The notes beneath the pieces are model-generated. The model worked only from the letters and a program-made list of their open reading frames with translations. It had not been told where the DNA came from and searched no databases. From Thermoproteota archaeon (GTDB lineage Archaea; Korarchaeota; Korarchaeia; Korarchaeales; Korarchaeaceae), in NCBI GenBank assembly GCA_027491435.1, contig JAOZFG010000028.1:27955-91954 (forward strand): a stretch of DNA of 64,000 bases, read 5' to 3'. The position numbers were made by a program, and so were the translations under genes. Shown here in pieces: positions 55,092 to 60,543 of this stretch (position 1 is the stretch's first letter; every line of letters starts with the position of its first letter).

Positions 55092-56063
55092 GTGATCTGG
55101 TTCACTGTTAGGATGGCCATTCCCAAGGGCTCCTTGGAGGAGGATACCTTCTCCTTCTTGAGGCAGTCCGGAATCAACGTATACGGTGCCAGCAGGTCTT
55201 ACAGGCCCAGAGTTGACTACAAAGGGTTGAGCGTCAAGATCCTCAGGCCTCAGGAGATCCCGGTATTAGTTCAGGAGGGAACTTACGACCTGGGCATCTC
55301 GGGCAGGGATTGGGTCAGGGAGAACAGGGCTGACGTGGAGGTCTTACTGGACCTGGAGTACGGGAAGGTCAGGCTTGTTTTGGCAGCCCCAATAAACTCC
55401 GACATAAAGTCCTTTGAGGATCTGGTGGAGCTCTCAAGGGAAAGGCCCGTCAGGATATCCACAGAATACCTTAACCTAGCGTCAGACTGGATAACCTCCA
55501 AGGAGAGTTACAGGAAGGTTTACGATGAGCCCCCAACGCTAATCACGCCCTGGTACAGGGTTAAGGGCAACGACAGGTTTAAGCTAATCCTATCGTTCGG
55601 GGCCACCGAAGCTAAGCCCCCCGAGGATGCAGACGCAATCATAGACAACACGGCCACCGGCACCACCTTGGCTAGGAATGGCCTGGGGATAATAGAGGAG
55701 ATATGCGAGAGCAGCGCCGTCCTAATAGCAAATAAGAACTCTTTAAAAGATCCTGAGAAGGTCGAGATCATCAAGGACGTGTACGCCCTGTTCAGGGGGG
55801 TTGTATTCGCTAGGAAGAACGTGCATGTCTTTATGAACGTGAAGGAGGAGAACCTTCAGGAGCTGATAAGCATTTTGCCAGCTCTAAAAGGCCCTACAGT
55901 ATCCCCCCTGTCCAAGGAGGGGTGGTATGCTGTCAACACGGTCATAGAGAAGGGTAAGCTCCTGGAGCTCATGCCAAAGCTCAGGAGACTGGCTCAGGGC
56001 CTTGTGGTGACGGATCCAAGGCAGGTCCTCCTGCTAGAGGACGTGGACGAGCTCGTCAGGTGA
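55092..56063 (+). CDS. hisG: ATP phosphoribosyltransferase (long form)
   Basis: MAIPKGSL, LRPQEIP, DLGISGRDW, SFGATEAKPPEDADAIID and the C-terminal regulatory domain PALKGPTVSPL. Confidence 0.95.
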   Translation: MIWFTVRMAIPKGSLEEDTFSFLRQSGINVYGASRSYRPRVDYKGLSVKILRPQEIPVLVQEGTYDLGISGRDWVRENRADVEVLLDLEYGKVRLVLAAPINSDIKSFEDLVELSRERPVRISTEYLNLASDWITSKESYRKVYDEPPTLITPWYRVKGNDRFKLILSFGATEAKPPEDADAIIDNTATGTTLARNGLGIIEEICESSAVLIANKNSLKDPEKVEIIKDVYALFRGVVFARKNVHVFMNVKEENLQELISILPALKGPTVSPLSKEGWYAVNTVIEKGKLLELMPKLRRLAQGLVVTDPRQVLLLEDVDELVR

Positions 56064-56067
56064 TCTC

Positions 56068-57015
56068 ATGGAGCTCATACCCCAACAGTCCACTGGAGAG
56101 AGGCTCTTCTATAACGAAAATCTTTTTCTACCTAGTGAATATTATGAAGAATTAATAAGAGCTATCACCCAGAAGCAGATAAGATTTTACCCAGATCCCT
56201 GGAACTCCAGGCTCGCCTCGGCCATCGCCGAGTTCCTGTCCCTGGAGCGGGAAAAGGTGCTCGTGGGCGCTGGCGCGGATGACCTGTTGAGGCTACTCAT
56301 AGGGCAAGCTGATGTAGTTGGGATAGTGGAGCCCTCCTACTCCATGTACGAGTTCCTGGCCAAGTCAATGGGTAAGGAGGTCAGAGCCGTCAGGTACCCG
56401 GAGGTGGGCGGCCTCAAGGGAGCTGACCTCATAGTGGTCAACTCCCCCAACAACCCGACAGGCCTCATGTACCCCGAAGGCTACCTGGAGGAACTGATGA
56501 GCCTAGGCACGGTTCTCCTCGACGAGGCCTACGTGGAGTTCTCTGGAGAGGAAGGTTACGTTAAGAGGGCCGGGGATGGCCTTATAGTGGTGAGGACCTT
56601 CTCAAAGGCTTGGGGGTTAGCAGGCCTTAGAGTAGGATACGCTGTGATGGATGAGGGGCTGATCAGGGAGCTCAAGGCCAGGGCCCTGCCATATCAGGTG
56701 TCGGGGGTCTCGGAGGCCATGGCCTTAAAGGCCTTAACGCTCCACAAGTTCGTCGAGGAGGCCGTCAGGGAGATGAACTCTGTTAAGGAGTGGTTTTACG
56801 GTGAGCTGGATCGCCTGGGGGTTCCCTACCTGAGGTCATGGACTAACTTCGTCTTTCTGCCCCTCAACAACTACAGGGACGCCTGGAGGCTCCTGAAGGA
56901 GAGGGGGTACCAGGTAAGGCTGGTAGAGAGGCCGGGGGCCAGAGGAATCAGGGTCACCTTAGCTCCAATCCCGGTGATGGAGGGGGTGGTGAGGGCCTTG
57001 GGTGAGATCTCATGA
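56068..57015 (+). CDS. hisC: Histidinol-phosphate aminotransferase
   Basis: NEN, YPD, GADD, NSPNNPTG, LDEAYVEF and RTFSKAWGLAGLRVGY. Confidence 0.92.
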   Translation: MELIPQQSTGERLFYNENLFLPSEYYEELIRAITQKQIRFYPDPWNSRLASAIAEFLSLEREKVLVGAGADDLLRLLIGQADVVGIVEPSYSMYEFLAKSMGKEVRAVRYPEVGGLKGADLIVVNSPNNPTGLMYPEGYLEELMSLGTVLLDEAYVEFSGEEGYVKRAGDGLIVVRTFSKAWGLAGLRVGYAVMDEGLIRELKARALPYQVSGVSEAMALKALTLHKFVEEAVREMNSVKEWFYGELDRLGVPYLRSWTNFVFLPLNNYRDAWRLLKERGYQVRLVERPGARGIRVTLAPIPVMEGVVRALGEIS

Positions 57016-57575
57016 AGGTCAGCAGGGCCACAAGGGAAACCAAGATAAGCTTGGAAGTCAGCCTGTACGGTAAGGGCGAGTTTAAAGGGGGTACCGGGCT
57101 GACATTCTTTGATCACATGCTCAGGACCCTGACGTTCTACTCTGGCATGGACTTGAGCGTTGAGGCTGAGTGGGATCTCAGCCACCACCTGATGGAGGAC
57201 CTCATGTACTTGCTGGGCGTCTCCTTGTCCAAGGGCTTAGGGGACAGGAAGGGCATAGCCAGATACGGGTGGTCAGTGGTCCCCATGGACGAGTCCCTCG
57301 TGCTAACCTCTGTAGACCTAGGCGGGAGGCCCTACTTCTCCTCAGACATACCTTCAGGACTCGTTGAGGGCCTTTCCACCGAAGACCTGATGCACGGGGT
57401 GGAGTCCTTTGCCAGAGGGGCTTTAGCAACGGTGCACGTAGTGGCTTTAAGGAAGGGCAACCTGCACCACCTCGTTGAGGCCTCCTTCAAGTCCCTAGGC
57501 CTCTCCCTAAGGCAGGCCCTCCAGAAGGTTGGAAGCCAGATAGCTAGCGTTAAGGGGGTGATCGACGTTGGTTAG
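57012..57575 (+). CDS. hisB: Imidazoleglycerol-phosphate dehydratase
   Basis: RATRET, FFDHML, HHLMED, PMDES and NLHHLVEASFK. Confidence 0.95.
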   Translation: MKVSRATRETKISLEVSLYGKGEFKGGTGLTFFDHMLRTLTFYSGMDLSVEAEWDLSHHLMEDLMYLLGVSLSKGLGDRKGIARYGWSVVPMDESLVLTSVDLGGRPYFSSDIPSGLVEGLSTEDLMHGVESFARGALATVHVVALRKGNLHHLVEASFKSLGLSLRQALQKVGSQIASVKGVIDVG

Positions 57576-58131
57576 GGTTTTCCTCGTGGACTACGGGGTG
57601 GGAAACGTCTTCAGCATAAGGAAGGCCCTGCAGGATCAAGGGGCCGAGGTGACCACTGAGGCTGAGGACTACGATGCCGTTGTCCTTCCGGGAGTTGGCA
57701 GCTACGACGGGGCCCTCTCCCAGATGAACAGGCAGGAGGTTCTTGAAGCCGTAAACAACTTCCCCACACTGGGCATTTGTCTGGGAATGCAGCTACTCTT
57801 TGAGAGGAGTGAGGAAGGAAAGCTTGAGGGTCTTAAGGTGATTAGGGGAGAGGTTCTTAGGTTCAGGGGGGTGAAGGCCCCGCACATGGGTTGGAGCCTA
57901 GTCAAAGGGTGGAGCAGGCTTTTCCAGGGGGAAGGCTACTTCTACTTCGCCCACTCCTACTACACAGTTCCCAAGGAGGACGTGGTCAGGGGAGTGGTAA
58001 ACTACGAGGGGATTGAAGTTCCGGCTATAGTGGAGAAGGGGGACGTATTCGGGACCCAGTTCCACCCGGAGAAGTCAGGCAAGAGGGGCAGGGAAGTGAT
58101 CAGGAGGTTCCTGGAGGTGGTGAGGTCCTGA
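57568..58131 (+). CDS. hisH: Imidazole glycerol phosphate synthase, glutaminase subunit
   Basis: DYGVGN, LPGVG, GICLGMQ, PHMGW, YFAHSY and QFHPEKS. Confidence 0.95.
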   Translation: MVRVFLVDYGVGNVFSIRKALQDQGAEVTTEAEDYDAVVLPGVGSYDGALSQMNRQEVLEAVNNFPTLGICLGMQLLFERSEEGKLEGLKVIRGEVLRFRGVKAPHMGWSLVKGWSRLFQGEGYFYFAHSYYTVPKEDVVRGVVNYEGIEVPAIVEKGDVFGTQFHPEKSGKRGREVIRRFLEVVRS

Positions 58132-58823
58132 TGCTGGCGATACCTGCTATAGACCTTTCAGGCGGCAGGGCAGTAAGGCTGGTGGGCCCGGAGGTTAGGG
58201 AATACGGGAACCCCTGGACTTGGGCTGAAAAGTTCTTAGGGGCTAGGAGGGTTCACGTTGTGGACATTGACGCCGCCTTGGGCAGGGGAAACAATTGGGA
58301 GCTCCTGATGAAATTAGTTAGGTGGTTTACTGGTAGGGGCGTCGAAGTACAGGTTGGAGGGGGCTTGAGGACTGCGGAGCTGGCTGTCAAGGTTATGGAA
58401 GCCGGTGGAATCCCTATCGTCGGCACCTTGGCGTTCAAGGATAGGGGGGCCTTGGCGAAGCTCTTGGATAGGGGGCCCGTGATAGTCTCGGTGGACAGCC
58501 TTCAGGGAAGGGTTAGGGTGAGAGGTTGGAGGGAAGATACGGGCCTTTCCGTAGAGGAGGCCCTGGAAGATTTCACCTCAATGGGGGTTAAGCAGTTCCT
58601 GCTCACCGGCATCTCCAGGGACGGGAGCTTGTCCGGAATAGATGAGTCCCTGACCCACCTGCCAGCCCTCTTCAGGGCCGACCTGATATACGCAGGGGGC
58701 GTCTCCTCCCTTGAGGATCTAATGAAGCTTAGGGACCTCGGCTTCTGGGGTGCAGTGGTTGGTAGAGCCATCTACGAGACTAGCCTGCTCCAGGAGCTGA
58801 TTAAAAGGAGGTGGGATCTTTGA
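58131..58823 (+). CDS. hisA: ProFAR isomerase
   Basis: [44 protein letters not shown] and GRAIY. Confidence 0.92.
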
Positions 58824-59575
58824 CGGCTAAGAGGATAATCCCCTGCCTGGACGTCAAGGACGGCAGGGTGGTTAAGGGGATCTCCTTCGTTAACTTGAGG
58901 GATGCAGGAGATCCAGTCACCCAGGCCAAGATATACGATGAACAGGGAGCAGATGAGCTCGTCTTCCTGGACATAACTGCGAGCAGGGAGAAGAGGAAGA
59001 CCTTGGTCGACCTGGTGAGGTCGGTTGCTGAAGTGCTCACCATTCCCTTCACGGTCGGAGGTGGGGTATCCTCAATAGACGACTTCTACAAGCTGTTGAG
59101 GGCGGGGGCCGATAAGGTCTCCATAAACACGGCTGCTGTCCTCAAACCGGAGCTCATAACCGAGGCCGCCTCCGTGTTCGGTTCTCAGTGCGTGGTAGTG
59201 GCCATAGACGCCAAGAGGAAGGGGGAGAGCTGGGAGGTCTACATAAGGGGCGGCACTGAGCCTACTGGCCTGGACGCCATAAAGTGGGCCAAGAAGGTTG
59301 AAGAGTTGGGTGCAGGCGAAATACTGCTCACCTCCATAGACAGGGACGGGACCAAGGACGGGTACGACGTTGAGCTCACCAGGGGGGTGGCTGAAGAGGT
59401 ATCCATCCCTGTGATAGCCAGTGGAGGGGCTGGCAGGATGGAGCACTTCCTAGAGGTTTTAACCGAGGGAAGGGCTGATGCAGCTCTGGCTGCGAGCGTC
59501 TTCCACTTTGGTGAGATTTCGATACCTGATCTGAAAGCTTACCTAATGGCCAGGGGAGTGGAGGTGAGACTATGA
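58811..59575 (+). CDS. hisF: Imidazole glycerol phosphate synthase, cyclase subunit
   Basis: [48 protein letters not shown] and AALAASVFH. Confidence 0.97.
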
Positions 59576-60543
59576 TGGTGAGCTTTGATAAGGTGAACTT
59601 CGAGAAGATGATGGGGCTCGTACCCGTAATAGTGAGGAGCTCAGTAACTGGTGAAATATTAATGCAGGCTTACGCAAACGAGGAGGCCCTCAAGAGGACT
59701 ATGGAGACGGGCTACGCCCACTTCTACAGCAGAACTAGGAAGAAGCTCTGGATGAAGGGTGAGACCTCAGGGAACGTCTTGAAGGTGCTTAAAGTCTGGA
59801 CCGACTGCGACTACGACGCTATAATTTATGAGGCCGTTCCATCAGGCCCAACCTGCCACACAGGAAGGTGGAGCTGCTTCCACAACTGGCTCCAGTACGA
59901 CGTTAGGTGGGACAAGCTCTGGGAGCTACTTGTTGAGGCCTTCTCCAAGGCCAGGGTCAGGGTTAGGAGGGGAGTAGGCGTGAAGGGCAACTACCTCTAC
60001 GTCATAAACCCGATAACCGACAGCATACCTCCTGCTGACCCCCTGATGGTCTCCCTGATGACTGATTACCTGTTGGACGGGCTGGAGTTCAGGGACTTGG
60101 ACAAGGTAGTCACTCCTGAAGCACTAGGCCTCCCTTTAGGCTCTGTCATAGCTTACAAGACGGGCCTTCCCCAGGCAATAGTTAGGAAGAGGGATTACGG
60201 GGTCGAGGGCGTGAAGGTGAAGTACAGGTCAGGCTACGAGGAGGGCTACTACTACGTTTACGGGGTGAAGCCGGGAGACAAGGTGTTGCTGGTGGATGAC
60301 GCCCTCTCAACTGGGGGCACGGCAGTTTCCATCCTGGAAGCCTTCTCTAGGATGGGGGTTGAGGTTAGGTCCGTCCTGGTAGGTCTGAACAAGCCACAAT
60401 ACGGGGGAGAAGAGAGGGTGAAGTCCATGGGCTATGAGGTAAGGAAAGTTGTCGACCTGACCGTTAAAGAGGAGGGCGTCCTGGCGATAGAGTTCAACGG
60501 AAAGAGGAGGGAGTTGAAAGTTCCGGTAATTCACTCCACGTAG
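59572..60543 (+). CDS. hisI: Fusion of phosphoribosyl-AMP cyclohydrolase (HisI) and an archaeal Hpt-like purine phosphoribosyltransferase
   Basis: N-terminus: [31 protein letters not shown]-terminus: [25 protein letters not shown] and the PRPP loop [13 protein letters not shown]. Confidence 0.9.

Follow-up and report, generated by a model that had tools for sequence, protein, structure and literature searches.

A purine phosphoribosyltransferase domain joined to HisI in archaeal histidine operons, and its possible part in replacing purine spent on histidine

The last gene of an archaeal histidine (his) operon encodes HisI joined in a single chain to a type I phosphoribosyltransferase (PRTase). 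It lies in the window, that is, the whole stretch of 64,000 nucleotides that was analyzed. Our main reading, to which we give a probability of roughly 0.5, is that the product is a bifunctional enzyme, in which HisI is accompanied by a working purine PRTase that refills the adenylate pool drained by histidine synthesis; the fusion probably replaces the adenine nucleotide spent on histidine in cells that are unable to recycle it. The N-terminal domain would perform the ordinary HisI cyclohydrolase step of histidine synthesis, and the C-terminal PRTase would turn a salvaged purine base and PRPP into a nucleotide; for the base, we infer hypoxanthine or adenine as the likeliest candidates. Because PRTase and HisI are translated as one chain, the PRTase would be produced in step with the histidine pathway. 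A literature search covering the main texts of papers turned up no account of HisI fused to a PRTase.

The fusion is the final gene of a hisG-C-B-H-A-F operon, whose upstream genes span 55092..59575 on the forward strand (Table 1). Its ATG overlaps the stop codon of hisF (ATGA, 59572-59575), and the single uninterrupted reading frame, with no internal stop on translation, ends with a TAG at 60541-60543.

Table 1. Features of the his operon and of the fusion gene in the window
Feature	Position	Strand	Remarks
hisG	55092-56063	+	long form with HisG_C
hisC	56068-57015	+	upstream operon gene
hisB	57012-57575	+	upstream operon gene
hisH	57568-58131	+	upstream operon gene
hisA	58131-58823	+	upstream operon gene
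hisF	58811-59575	+	upstream operon gene, adjoins the fusion
hisI~PRT fusion gene	59572..60543	+	323 aa, then TAG stop
HisI (phosphoribosyl-AMP cyclohydrolase) domain	59572..59904	+	residues 1-111; PRA-CH, NF000768, 1ZPS fold match
HisI signature D78-C79-D80-D82 ... C95-H96 ... C102	59803..59877	+	invariant, 55/55 fused homologues
type I PRTase domain, archaeal Hpt/Apt kind	59905..60540	+	residues 112-323; profiles, alignment with stand-alone Hpt, fold match
flexible catalytic loop R205-K206-R207 ... S220-G221-Y222-E223 ... Y230-G231	60184..60264	+	alignment; with fusion-specific Y218, S220, E223, Y230
PRPP-binding motif V238-T250	60283..60321	+	13 residues; in alignment with that of E. coli Apt

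An earlier note on this DNA had described one reading frame with a complete HisI and a complete Hpt-like PRTase, a description that profiles, motifs and translation bear out. In the N-terminal half, PRA-CH (PF01502, Pfam) matches residues 31-104 over model positions 1-74 of 74, with 106.3 bits against a cut-off of 27, and the HisI equivalog NF000768 (NCBIfam) scores 130.9 bits, above its cut-off of 126. The HisI motifs appear as D78-C79-D80 and C95-H96-T97-G98...S101-C102-F103; in the alignment, the signature residues D78, C79, D80, D82, C95, H96 and C102, which we take to be metal ligands, do not vary among the fused homologues. The HisI part of an AlphaFold2 model superposes on 1ZPS with an rmsd of 1.3 A over 95 columns (TM 0.74 on target length). 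By profile, signature and fold, the N-terminal half thus reads as a complete HisI with a predicted cyclohydrolase activity.

As for the C-terminal half, Pribosyltran (PF00156, Pfam) matches residues 177-281 with 36.2 bits (cut-off 26.3), and two NCBIfam models were compared with it: the Apt subfamily NF002635, over residues 138-306, scores 148.6 bits, marginally over its cut-off of 146, and the archaeal Hpt equivalog NF040646 scores 140.8 bits, under its cut-off of 200. In model and alignment, the helix that opens the domain (residues 112-125) corresponds to the N-terminal helix of stand-alone Hpt. From this helix onward, stand-alone archaeal Hpt proteins (NF040646, 185-191 aa) align end to end with the fused domain at about 40-42% identity, and E183, the RKR loop, the GY pair and the PRPP motif are common to both; the fused domain differs in falling below the equivalog cut-off, in forming its own clade and in having eight residues fixed otherwise. 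The closest solved structures are APRTs (E. coli 2DY0/7Y94, Y. pseudotuberculosis 5ZNQ, human 6FCI; 53.6-53.8 bits), to which the PRTase domain of the model fits with TM values of 0.76-0.81, those for the bacterial APRTs being 0.77-0.81 on target length; the core fold, with flexible loop and hood, is shared. Its catalytic loop and PRPP motif line up with their Apt counterparts, as does the ...GGE.R... stretch past the PRPP strand, but identity is only about 25%, and where Apt has Arg in its EARGF loop, the fusion has Leu (PEALGLP), the same as archaeal Hpt. Among 55 fused proteins, D243, S246, T247, G248 and G249 of the PRPP motif are invariant, and so are E183, G186, P188, R205, S220, G221, Y230 and G231, while conservation reaches 90% or more at K206, R207, Y222 and D242. 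The whole-chain AlphaFold2 model has a mean pLDDT of 94.6 and a pTM of 0.90; within the PRTase domain, pLDDT is at least 83 in each 10-residue block, the last three residues excepted. By sequence and predicted fold, the C-terminal half is a complete type I PRTase of the Apt/archaeal-Hpt type.

The fusion is genuine and no assembly artefact. Its linker (cac aac tgg ctc cag tac gac gtt agg tgg gac aag ctc tgg gag cta ctt) comprises 17 codons with no ATG, GTG, TTG or stop among them, in agreement with the earlier note, which had seen no in-frame start or stop there. A search of domain architectures, proposed in the same note, found PRA-CH and Pribosyltran joined in 59 protein clusters (P0001-P0059) of the best 120, drawn from 602 matches. 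That two adjoining genes were merged through a sequencing or assembly error is extremely improbable: the same unbroken architecture is seen in these 59 clusters, which come from independent sources and include one on a 2.0-Mb contig, the fusion is present at nine loci in different genomes, and the whole chain is modeled with confidence.

At all nine loci where both domains are intact (the window, L017, L061, L010, L018, L101, L134, L136 and L138), the fusion closes the his operon. Within the window's genus, HisI occurs in 3 of the 19 sampled genomes and is fused in all three; no orthologue of the PRT domain was found in the other 16, those without HisI. Sister genomes have a bare HisI of 112-113 aa with no fused domain, and in one genome of a sister genus (G038) a canonical HisIE (PRA-CH 122.2 bits, PRA-PH 75.4 bits) fills the same hisA-hisF-X slot; in the fusion, the PRTase occupies the usual place of HisE. 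A contig search with a single protein returned mostly plain HisI loci, 4 of 80 being fused. Over the 4738 ORFs within 8 kb on either side of these 80 loci, no separate hpt was found near hisI, PRT matches being confined to the four fused loci; one further HisI locus has a weak 23.1-bit PRT match 7 kb away.

The known bifunctional enzyme HisIE (PDB 6J2L; plant HISN2 7BGM) resembles the fusion in its HisI domain (110 bits to 6J2L, Foldseek E = 1e-14), in the second domain that follows straight after the SCF motif, and in the position of the gene, last or late in the his operon. It differs in the nature of the partner, which is an all-alpha PRA-PH domain in HisIE and a Rossmann-like type I PRTase in the fusion. 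PF01503 (PRA-PH, Pfam) has no match in the fusion protein, and the HisIE model NF002747, whose cut-off is 187 bits, reaches 142.5 and covers the HisI half only (model positions 6-120). Another difference is that a separate hisE can accompany the fusion, as in G098.

In a tree of 136 sequences, 62 fused PRT domains group together as a single clade (support 0.986), and the HisI tree and the PRT tree share a deep split into 30 and 25 sequences (support 0.992 and 1.0). A single clade with matching splits shows that this old, conserved fusion has one origin, after which the two domains evolved side by side; its PRTase appears to descend, by a single event, from archaeal Hpt. Across the fused clade, eight positions (P154, A194, A202, Y218, S220, E223, Y230 and Y277) each hold one fixed residue, unlike the 66 stand-alone Hpt proteins compared, which suggests a substrate preference different from that of ordinary Hpt. 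In every case found, PRT of the fused type is attached to HisI or to what is left of an N-terminus, with the possible exception of P0123 (197 aa, nested in the fused clade), which may be a fragment; when the PRT region was used by itself in a word-based search, the 15 proteins recovered were all fused or P0060-like. Position and tree suggest that the N-terminus of P0060-P0062 is a HisI remnant, and hmmsearch detected no HisI there (1.2 bits at most). The domain has also decayed: in P0063-P0072 and P0076, a C-terminal domain of 150-190 aa remains in which neither PRPP motif nor flexible loop survives, and the PRPP motif is mutated in P0029, P0036 and P0045. The converse is seen in G479, where the PRTase is intact, the N-terminus is unrecognizable as HisI and the gene lies outside any his operon; no HisI was found elsewhere in this genome and no his genes near its PRT gene, and the genome is without PurP. 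That G479 keeps the PRT under these circumstances suggests that the PRTase is useful apart from HisI.

For each histidine made, the purine ring of one ATP is used and AICAR released. In the window's genome (G000, 99.5% complete), PurA is present, and PurC, PurH and PurP were not found. With neither purine synthesis nor the AICAR-to-IMP step, G000 would end up one purine nucleotide poorer for each histidine. The nucleotide lost would be replaced by the fused PRTase, IMP being converted to AMP through PurA, and compensation of this drain would be the selective reason for the fusion. The passages covered of Brown et al. (2011, PMC3261824) expect any genome with his genes to have the last two steps of purine synthesis, predict a net purine loss and AICAR build-up where his genes occur without them, and add that some PurP-like proteins are not proven AICAR formyltransferases. 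They describe Thermococcus onnurineus, like G000, as having the his pathway without PurH and PurP, and in those same passages a HisI-fused PRTase is not mentioned. G000 also encodes two other purine-type PRTases (Gpt/Xpt-like, 199 aa, and PRK08558-type, 239 aa); no shortage of salvage capacity is obvious in it, which counts against the main reading.

Comparison across genomes links the fusion to the absence of PurP. Among his-positive genomes tested for PurP, it is missing in 8 of the 13 with an intact fusion (G000, G002, G008, G021, G098, G346, G202 and G285) and in 1 of the 23 without (G038), an odds ratio of 35 with a Fisher p of 3e-4 that overstates the case, as related genomes are not independent and the unfused controls were taken from the top of the list. 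Put the other way, the intact fusion is found in 8 of 9 his-positive genomes that lack PurP (AICAR to IMP); the ninth, the HisIE-bearing G038 (87% complete), is without PurP, PurH and the fusion. Of these eight fusion genomes and G479, the search for PurH covered G000, G002, G008 and G021. PurP is present in all four genomes whose PRT domain is degenerate (G448, G325, G350 and G106). Fusion and PurP are found together in five genomes (G333, G404, G042, G075 and G043, the fusion gene of G043 being split across two frames), so that the fusion is not limited to genomes unable to recycle AICAR. The first of three functions proposed in the earlier note, purine salvage tied to the ATP drain of histidine synthesis, is favored by the conserved catalytic residues, the operon linkage and the association with PurP.

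A PRTase in this position could conceivably act on AICAR instead. Its pocket would be retuned to AICA and run the reverse reaction, AICAR + PPi -> AICA + PRPP, which would remove a dead-end by-product, consume PPi from the HisG and HisE steps and give PRPP back to HisG. EC 2.4.2.7 (APRT) is indeed a reversible adenine/AICA phosphoribosyltransferase according to passages of PMC5171910. The PurP association fits AICAR cleavage and salvage equally well, G000, G002, G008 and G021 have no known onward enzyme for AICAR, and the aromatic and acidic changes fixed in the clade (Y218, E223, Y230 and Y277) fall in base-facing loops. We nevertheless hold this activity unlikely: the equilibria of purine PRTases lie towards nucleotide formation, the five fusion genomes with PurP would recycle AICAR normally, and the PRT of G479 persists without HisI or nearby his genes, and would then have no histidine-derived AICAR to act on. 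It is likewise doubtful that the PRTase closes a loop in the his operon, in which cleavage of AICAR with PPi would detoxify it, pull the unfavorable first step and return PRPP; if true, such a loop would be previously undescribed. Also improbable is a mainly non-catalytic domain, serving as a PRPP or nucleotide sensor or as a dimerization scaffold that tunes HisI, in the manner of PurR and PyrR. The fusion shares with these the type I PRTase fold and the PRPP motif, and PurR is among the fold matches (TM 0.54-0.56); the pTM of the model points to a fixed packing of both domains; and retention of the C-terminal domain in lineages where motif and loop are lost or mutated suggests a structural role outlasting catalysis. 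The fusion differs from PurR and PyrR, however, in keeping the catalytic loop, whose residues are invariant along with the PRPP motif in the 55 fused proteins, and in having no DNA- or RNA-binding part: no nucleic-acid-binding domain was found in it, and TIGR01743 (PurR), with a cut-off of 258.7 bits, gives no more than 35.4. In addition, the bare HisI of sister genomes suffices, and in G479 there is no recognizable HisI to regulate. The regulatory domain proposed in the earlier note is thereby weakened by the conserved catalytic loop and by G479, and keeps a small share of the probability.

A very unlikely alternative, also raised there, is that the PRTase domain covers the HisE step, either as a PR-ATP hydrolase or by joining AMP and PRPP into PR-AMP. 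The domain takes the position that HisE has in HisIE, G000 lacks a canonical HisE, and the L018 and L138 operons (hisG, D, C, HAD hydrolase, B, H, A, F, I~PRT) contain no hisE. As a general role, however, HisE replacement is refuted by G098, where the fusion is preceded, two genes earlier in the same operon, by a canonical hisE (71.8 bits), hisG-A-B-F-D-hisE-hisH-hisI~PRT; a normal hisE in the genome was the refuting finding named in the earlier note, and it is seen here in a relative. The unfused sister genomes G071, G073 and G074 have neither a PRA-PH or MazG match nor a PRT-domain orthologue, and PRA-PH exceeds 25 bits in none of 26 unfused his-positive controls. Long-form HisG is kept in all operons seen, which would be needless if the PRTase formed PR-AMP, and phosphoanhydride hydrolysis is foreign to PRTase chemistry. 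Co-occurrence with hisE absence, put forward as a check on this proposal, does not discriminate, HisE being undetectable in most unfused relatives too.

The PR-ATP pyrophosphohydrolase is undetectable in many his-positive genomes of this archaeal group, a separate gap that the fusion does not fill. Six his-positive genomes of one order, with HisI fused or not, gave no PRA-PH or MazG match. The sole PRA-PH/MazG-like gene of G000 encodes a 95-aa MazG-type protein (PRA-PH 22 bits, MazG 40.1 bits); all 20 genomes of the genus have this gene, as do 35 of 43 in the phylum, his-less genomes included, and it was for that reason rejected as a his-specific HisE, although the protein may moonlight at this step. 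Weak PRA-PH matches (12-22 bits, ORFs of 109-117 aa) in Nitrosopumilus- and Nitrososphaeraceae-type genomes were rejected as well: no his genes were found near them, and they presumably represent dimeric-dUTPase/MazG-type proteins, which they resemble.

Histidine synthesis is commonly held to be purine-neutral, because AICAR re-enters purine synthesis. In at least four archaeal lineages, histidine is made without PurP, and nearly all have a purine PRTase joined to HisI. The fusion is a candidate thermostable bifunctional enzyme. If the link with PurP holds, it would provide an annotation for a family labelled merely 'phosphoribosyl-AMP cyclohydrolase', and would explain how purine-auxotrophic archaea can afford to synthesize histidine.

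The hisI~PRT gene ends a tightly packed, co-directional operon in the order hisG (long form, HisG plus HisG_C), hisC, hisB, hisH, hisA, hisF, hisI~PRT, and its ATG shares ATGA with the hisF stop codon. Translation runs without internal stop; the HisI motifs cited in the earlier note are present, and the 17 linker codons contain neither start nor stop, as it had stated. Each domain is a member of a known family. The PRA-CH domain is full-length (residues 31-104, 106.3 bits, Pfam), and NCBIfam assigns the N-terminus to the HisI equivalog with 130.9 bits against a cut-off of 126. A Pribosyltran domain follows (residues 177-281, 36.2 bits, Pfam). Over residues 138-306 the NCBIfam scores put it in an intermediate position: NF002635, an Apt subfamily, gives 148.6 bits (cut-off 146), and NF040646, archaeal Hpt, gives 140.8 bits against a cut-off of 200.

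The join of HisI and PRTase is genuine. Among the best 120 of 602 matches in a search of 5.8 billion proteins, every one of the 59 best clusters (P0001-P0059) has both domains, at lengths of 278-340 aa (318-340 aa except for partial P0054), and the sources named for fused clusters include Desulfurococcales, Pyrofollis japonicus, Conexivisphaerales and Nitrososphaerota. The ESM Atlas holds an archaeal cluster of 74 members with identical architecture. The AlphaFold2 model, made from a 55-sequence alignment, has a mean pLDDT of 94.6 and a pTM of 0.90. In Foldseek its N-terminal part superposes on HisI 1ZPS across 95 columns at an rmsd of 1.3 A, with HisIE a further match, and its C-terminal part matches XPRT and, at TM 0.76-0.81 normalised to the target length, APRT of bacteria and human; no solved chain spanning both parts was found, the top TM on query length being 0.50. 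The 59 clusters and the confident whole-chain model bear out the claim of one fused gene, not two abutting ones. In genome G043 the gene is split between two frames, which reflects a frameshift or else an error in sequencing.

Over its whole length the PRTase domain aligns with stand-alone archaeal Hpt (185-191 aa), beginning at the first helix of Hpt (residues 112-125 in the model), so most of the apparent linker is an Hpt N-terminus. Across 55 fused proteins, the residues that are invariant or nearly so comprise the PRPP motif (D242, D243, S246-G249), the loop residues R205-K206-R207 and G221-Y222, and E183, G186 and P188, and they line up with matching elements of E. coli Apt. A comparison of 59 domains from fusions against 66 relatives that stand alone (P0029, P0036, P0045, P0188 and P0123 omitted) revealed eight positions whose residue is constant across the fused clade and uncommon outside it: P154, A194, A202, Y218, S220, E223, Y230 and Y277, with Thr, Ser and Asn as the stand-alone counterparts of S220, E223 and Y230. 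Judged from these residues, the catalytic machinery is retained and the loops facing the base are retuned.

In a tree of 136 PRT domains (matches covering fewer than 140 model positions dropped), all 62 fused domains group in a single clade (support 0.986); its only other members are P0060-P0062 and P0123, a 197-aa protein that may be a fragment. Trees of the two halves of 55 fused proteins agree on a 30/25 split (support 0.992 for HisI, 1.0 for PRT). The single clade and matching trees lead us to conclude that the fusion arose once, long ago, and that its halves stayed joined. Either half can apparently decay: P0063-P0072 and P0076 keep HisI with loss of the flexible loop and PRPP motif, P0029, P0036 and P0045 have a mutated PRPP motif, and in P0060-P0062 (295 aa) the PRT domain is intact and the N-terminal ~100 aa are unrecognisable as HisI. 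P0073, P0074 and P0078 (220-225 aa) carry HisI with a ~110-aa C-terminal extension that has no Pfam match and no convincing alignment with the PRT domain.

The fusion closes the his operon in all nine loci where both halves are intact: the window, L017 (G002), L061 (G008), L010 (G021), L018 (G042), L101 (G075), L134 (G098), L136 (G333) and L138 (G346). HisI occurs in three of 19 genomes drawn from the window's genus, fused each time, and no PRT-domain orthologue occurs in the other 16. In the phylum around G042, 286 of 401 sampled genomes (at least 90% complete, including unpublished G453 with plain HisI) have HisI, and seven the intact fusion; G453 enters into no other result. Three Nitrososphaeria-type his operons have a gene of 320-389 aa between hisC and hisB, a candidate histidinol-phosphate phosphatase whose N-terminal ~230 aa have no assignment.

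Coordinates of the fusion gene and of other features observed (G, genomes, G000 being the window's own; L, loci)
Feature	Location	Strand	Length	Remarks
hisI~PRT	window:59572-60543	+	323 aa	single ORF
Convergent ORF	window:60531-60884	-	117 aa	overlaps final 13 nt of fusion gene; no Pfam match; hydrophobic, membrane-like by sequence appearance
hisC-hisB interposed gene	L018:4195-5289			weak HAD-hydrolase match
hisC-hisB interposed gene	L138:3157-4323			weak HAD-hydrolase match
hisC-hisB interposed gene	L136:4647-5606			no Pfam match
Histidinol dehydrogenase paralogue	G000:C36:3204-4352	-		324.8 bits; outside his operon
Histidinol dehydrogenase paralogue	G000:C16:134322-135449	+		273.8 bits; outside his operon; hisS directly after
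MazG-type gene and Gpt/Xpt-like PRTase	G000:C16:125496-126226 (L001:848-1722)	-	95 aa and 199 aa	16-nt overlap at PRTase start; translationally coupled
Two adjacent PurP-like genes	G012:C1:410387-412053			window's genus, one contig; no his genes
Fusion gene in two overlapping frames	G043:C3:137397-138291 (L019/L103)			query residues 14-226 and 224-301

The earlier note had also proposed that the PRTase domain covers a missing HisE step. The sole PRA-PH/MazG match of G000 is a 95-aa MazG-type gene (PRA-PH 22 bits, MazG 40.1 bits), and no other gene of its fold in that genome is a candidate for the PR-ATP step. The MazG-type gene is not his-specific, since it occurs in 20/20 genomes of the window's genus with or without his genes; it is found in 35/43 genomes of the phylum and in 0/4 of a sister genus that has HisIE, in whose genome G038 canonical HisIE occupies the operon slot of the fusion. 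Although G000 seemed at first to favour the proposal, three results count against it. First, G098 has its own hisE (71.8 bits) in the operon hisG-hisA-hisB-hisF-hisD-hisE-hisH-hisI~PRT. Second, within the G042 order his+ genomes equally have no PRA-PH or MazG match whether fused (three) or unfused (three), and the unfused three also have no PRT-domain orthologue. Whole-genome six-frame searches of G042, G043, G075, G071, G073 and G074 gave nothing with PF03819 and, with PF01503, nothing or at most 25 bits. Third, PRA-PH stays at or below 25 bits in all 26 unfused his+ controls. PR-ATP pyrophosphohydrolase thus goes undetected in many his+ genomes of the phylum, being either of an unrecognised type or too divergent for Pfam models in such searches. 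As fused and unfused genomes share this gap, it is independent of the fusion, and HisE replacement is highly improbable. In the degenerate-PRT genomes G325, G350 and G106, hisE likewise lies nearby (operon confirmed by Pfam in G325).

G000 (99.5% complete) yielded PurA and no PurC, PurH or PurP in our searches; with this gene set it is capable of neither purine synthesis nor AICAR to IMP conversion. For exactly such a set, his genes without AICAR recycling, Brown et al. 2011 (PMC3261824) predicted that purine is lost on balance and AICAR builds up. In our PF06973 survey, intact fusion is associated with PurP absence (8/5 vs 1/22, odds ratio 35, p = 3e-4), a test on PurP counts alone in which related genomes are non-independent and controls come from the top of one list. 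G479, also without PurP, has an intact PRT domain in a protein without recognisable HisI, encoded amid unrelated genes, and a search of the rest of that genome found no HisI. Within the window's genus, his genes and PurP are mutually exclusive among the genomes tested, his+ members having no PurP.

PurP (PF06973) among his+ genomes, by form of HisI (G022, with HisI at a contig edge, left unclassified)
Form	PurP absent	PurP present
Intact fusion	G000, G002, G008, G021, G098, G346, G202, G285	G333, G404, G042, G043, G075
Degenerate PRT domain	none	4/4: G448, G325, G350, G106
Unfused HisI	none	15/15
HisIE or long forms	G038 (HisIE, 87% complete)	G199, G195, G278

The most economical account, to which we give a probability of about 0.5, is that the fusion is a working purine PRTase replacing nucleotide destroyed by histidine synthesis. 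Made in step with the pathway through its fusion to HisI, the PRTase would refill the purine nucleotide lost per histidine; where AICAR is recycled, it would become dispensable and prone to decay. An enzyme directed at AICA or AICAR would fit both the AICAR dead end and the retuning of the base loops, and in PMC5171910 APRT is described as an adenine/AICA PRTase whose reaction is reversible; we nevertheless regard this as unlikely, and a sensor or scaffold role for the domain as slightly less probable again.

Databases already list the fusion as 'phosphoribosyl-AMP cyclohydrolase'. A full-text literature search found no description of it, and passages of two surveys that deal with fusions among his genes and in archaea (PMC1963479, PMC11237513) do not mention it either. 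The HisI-PRTase fusion comes with a physiological rationale that is open to testing.
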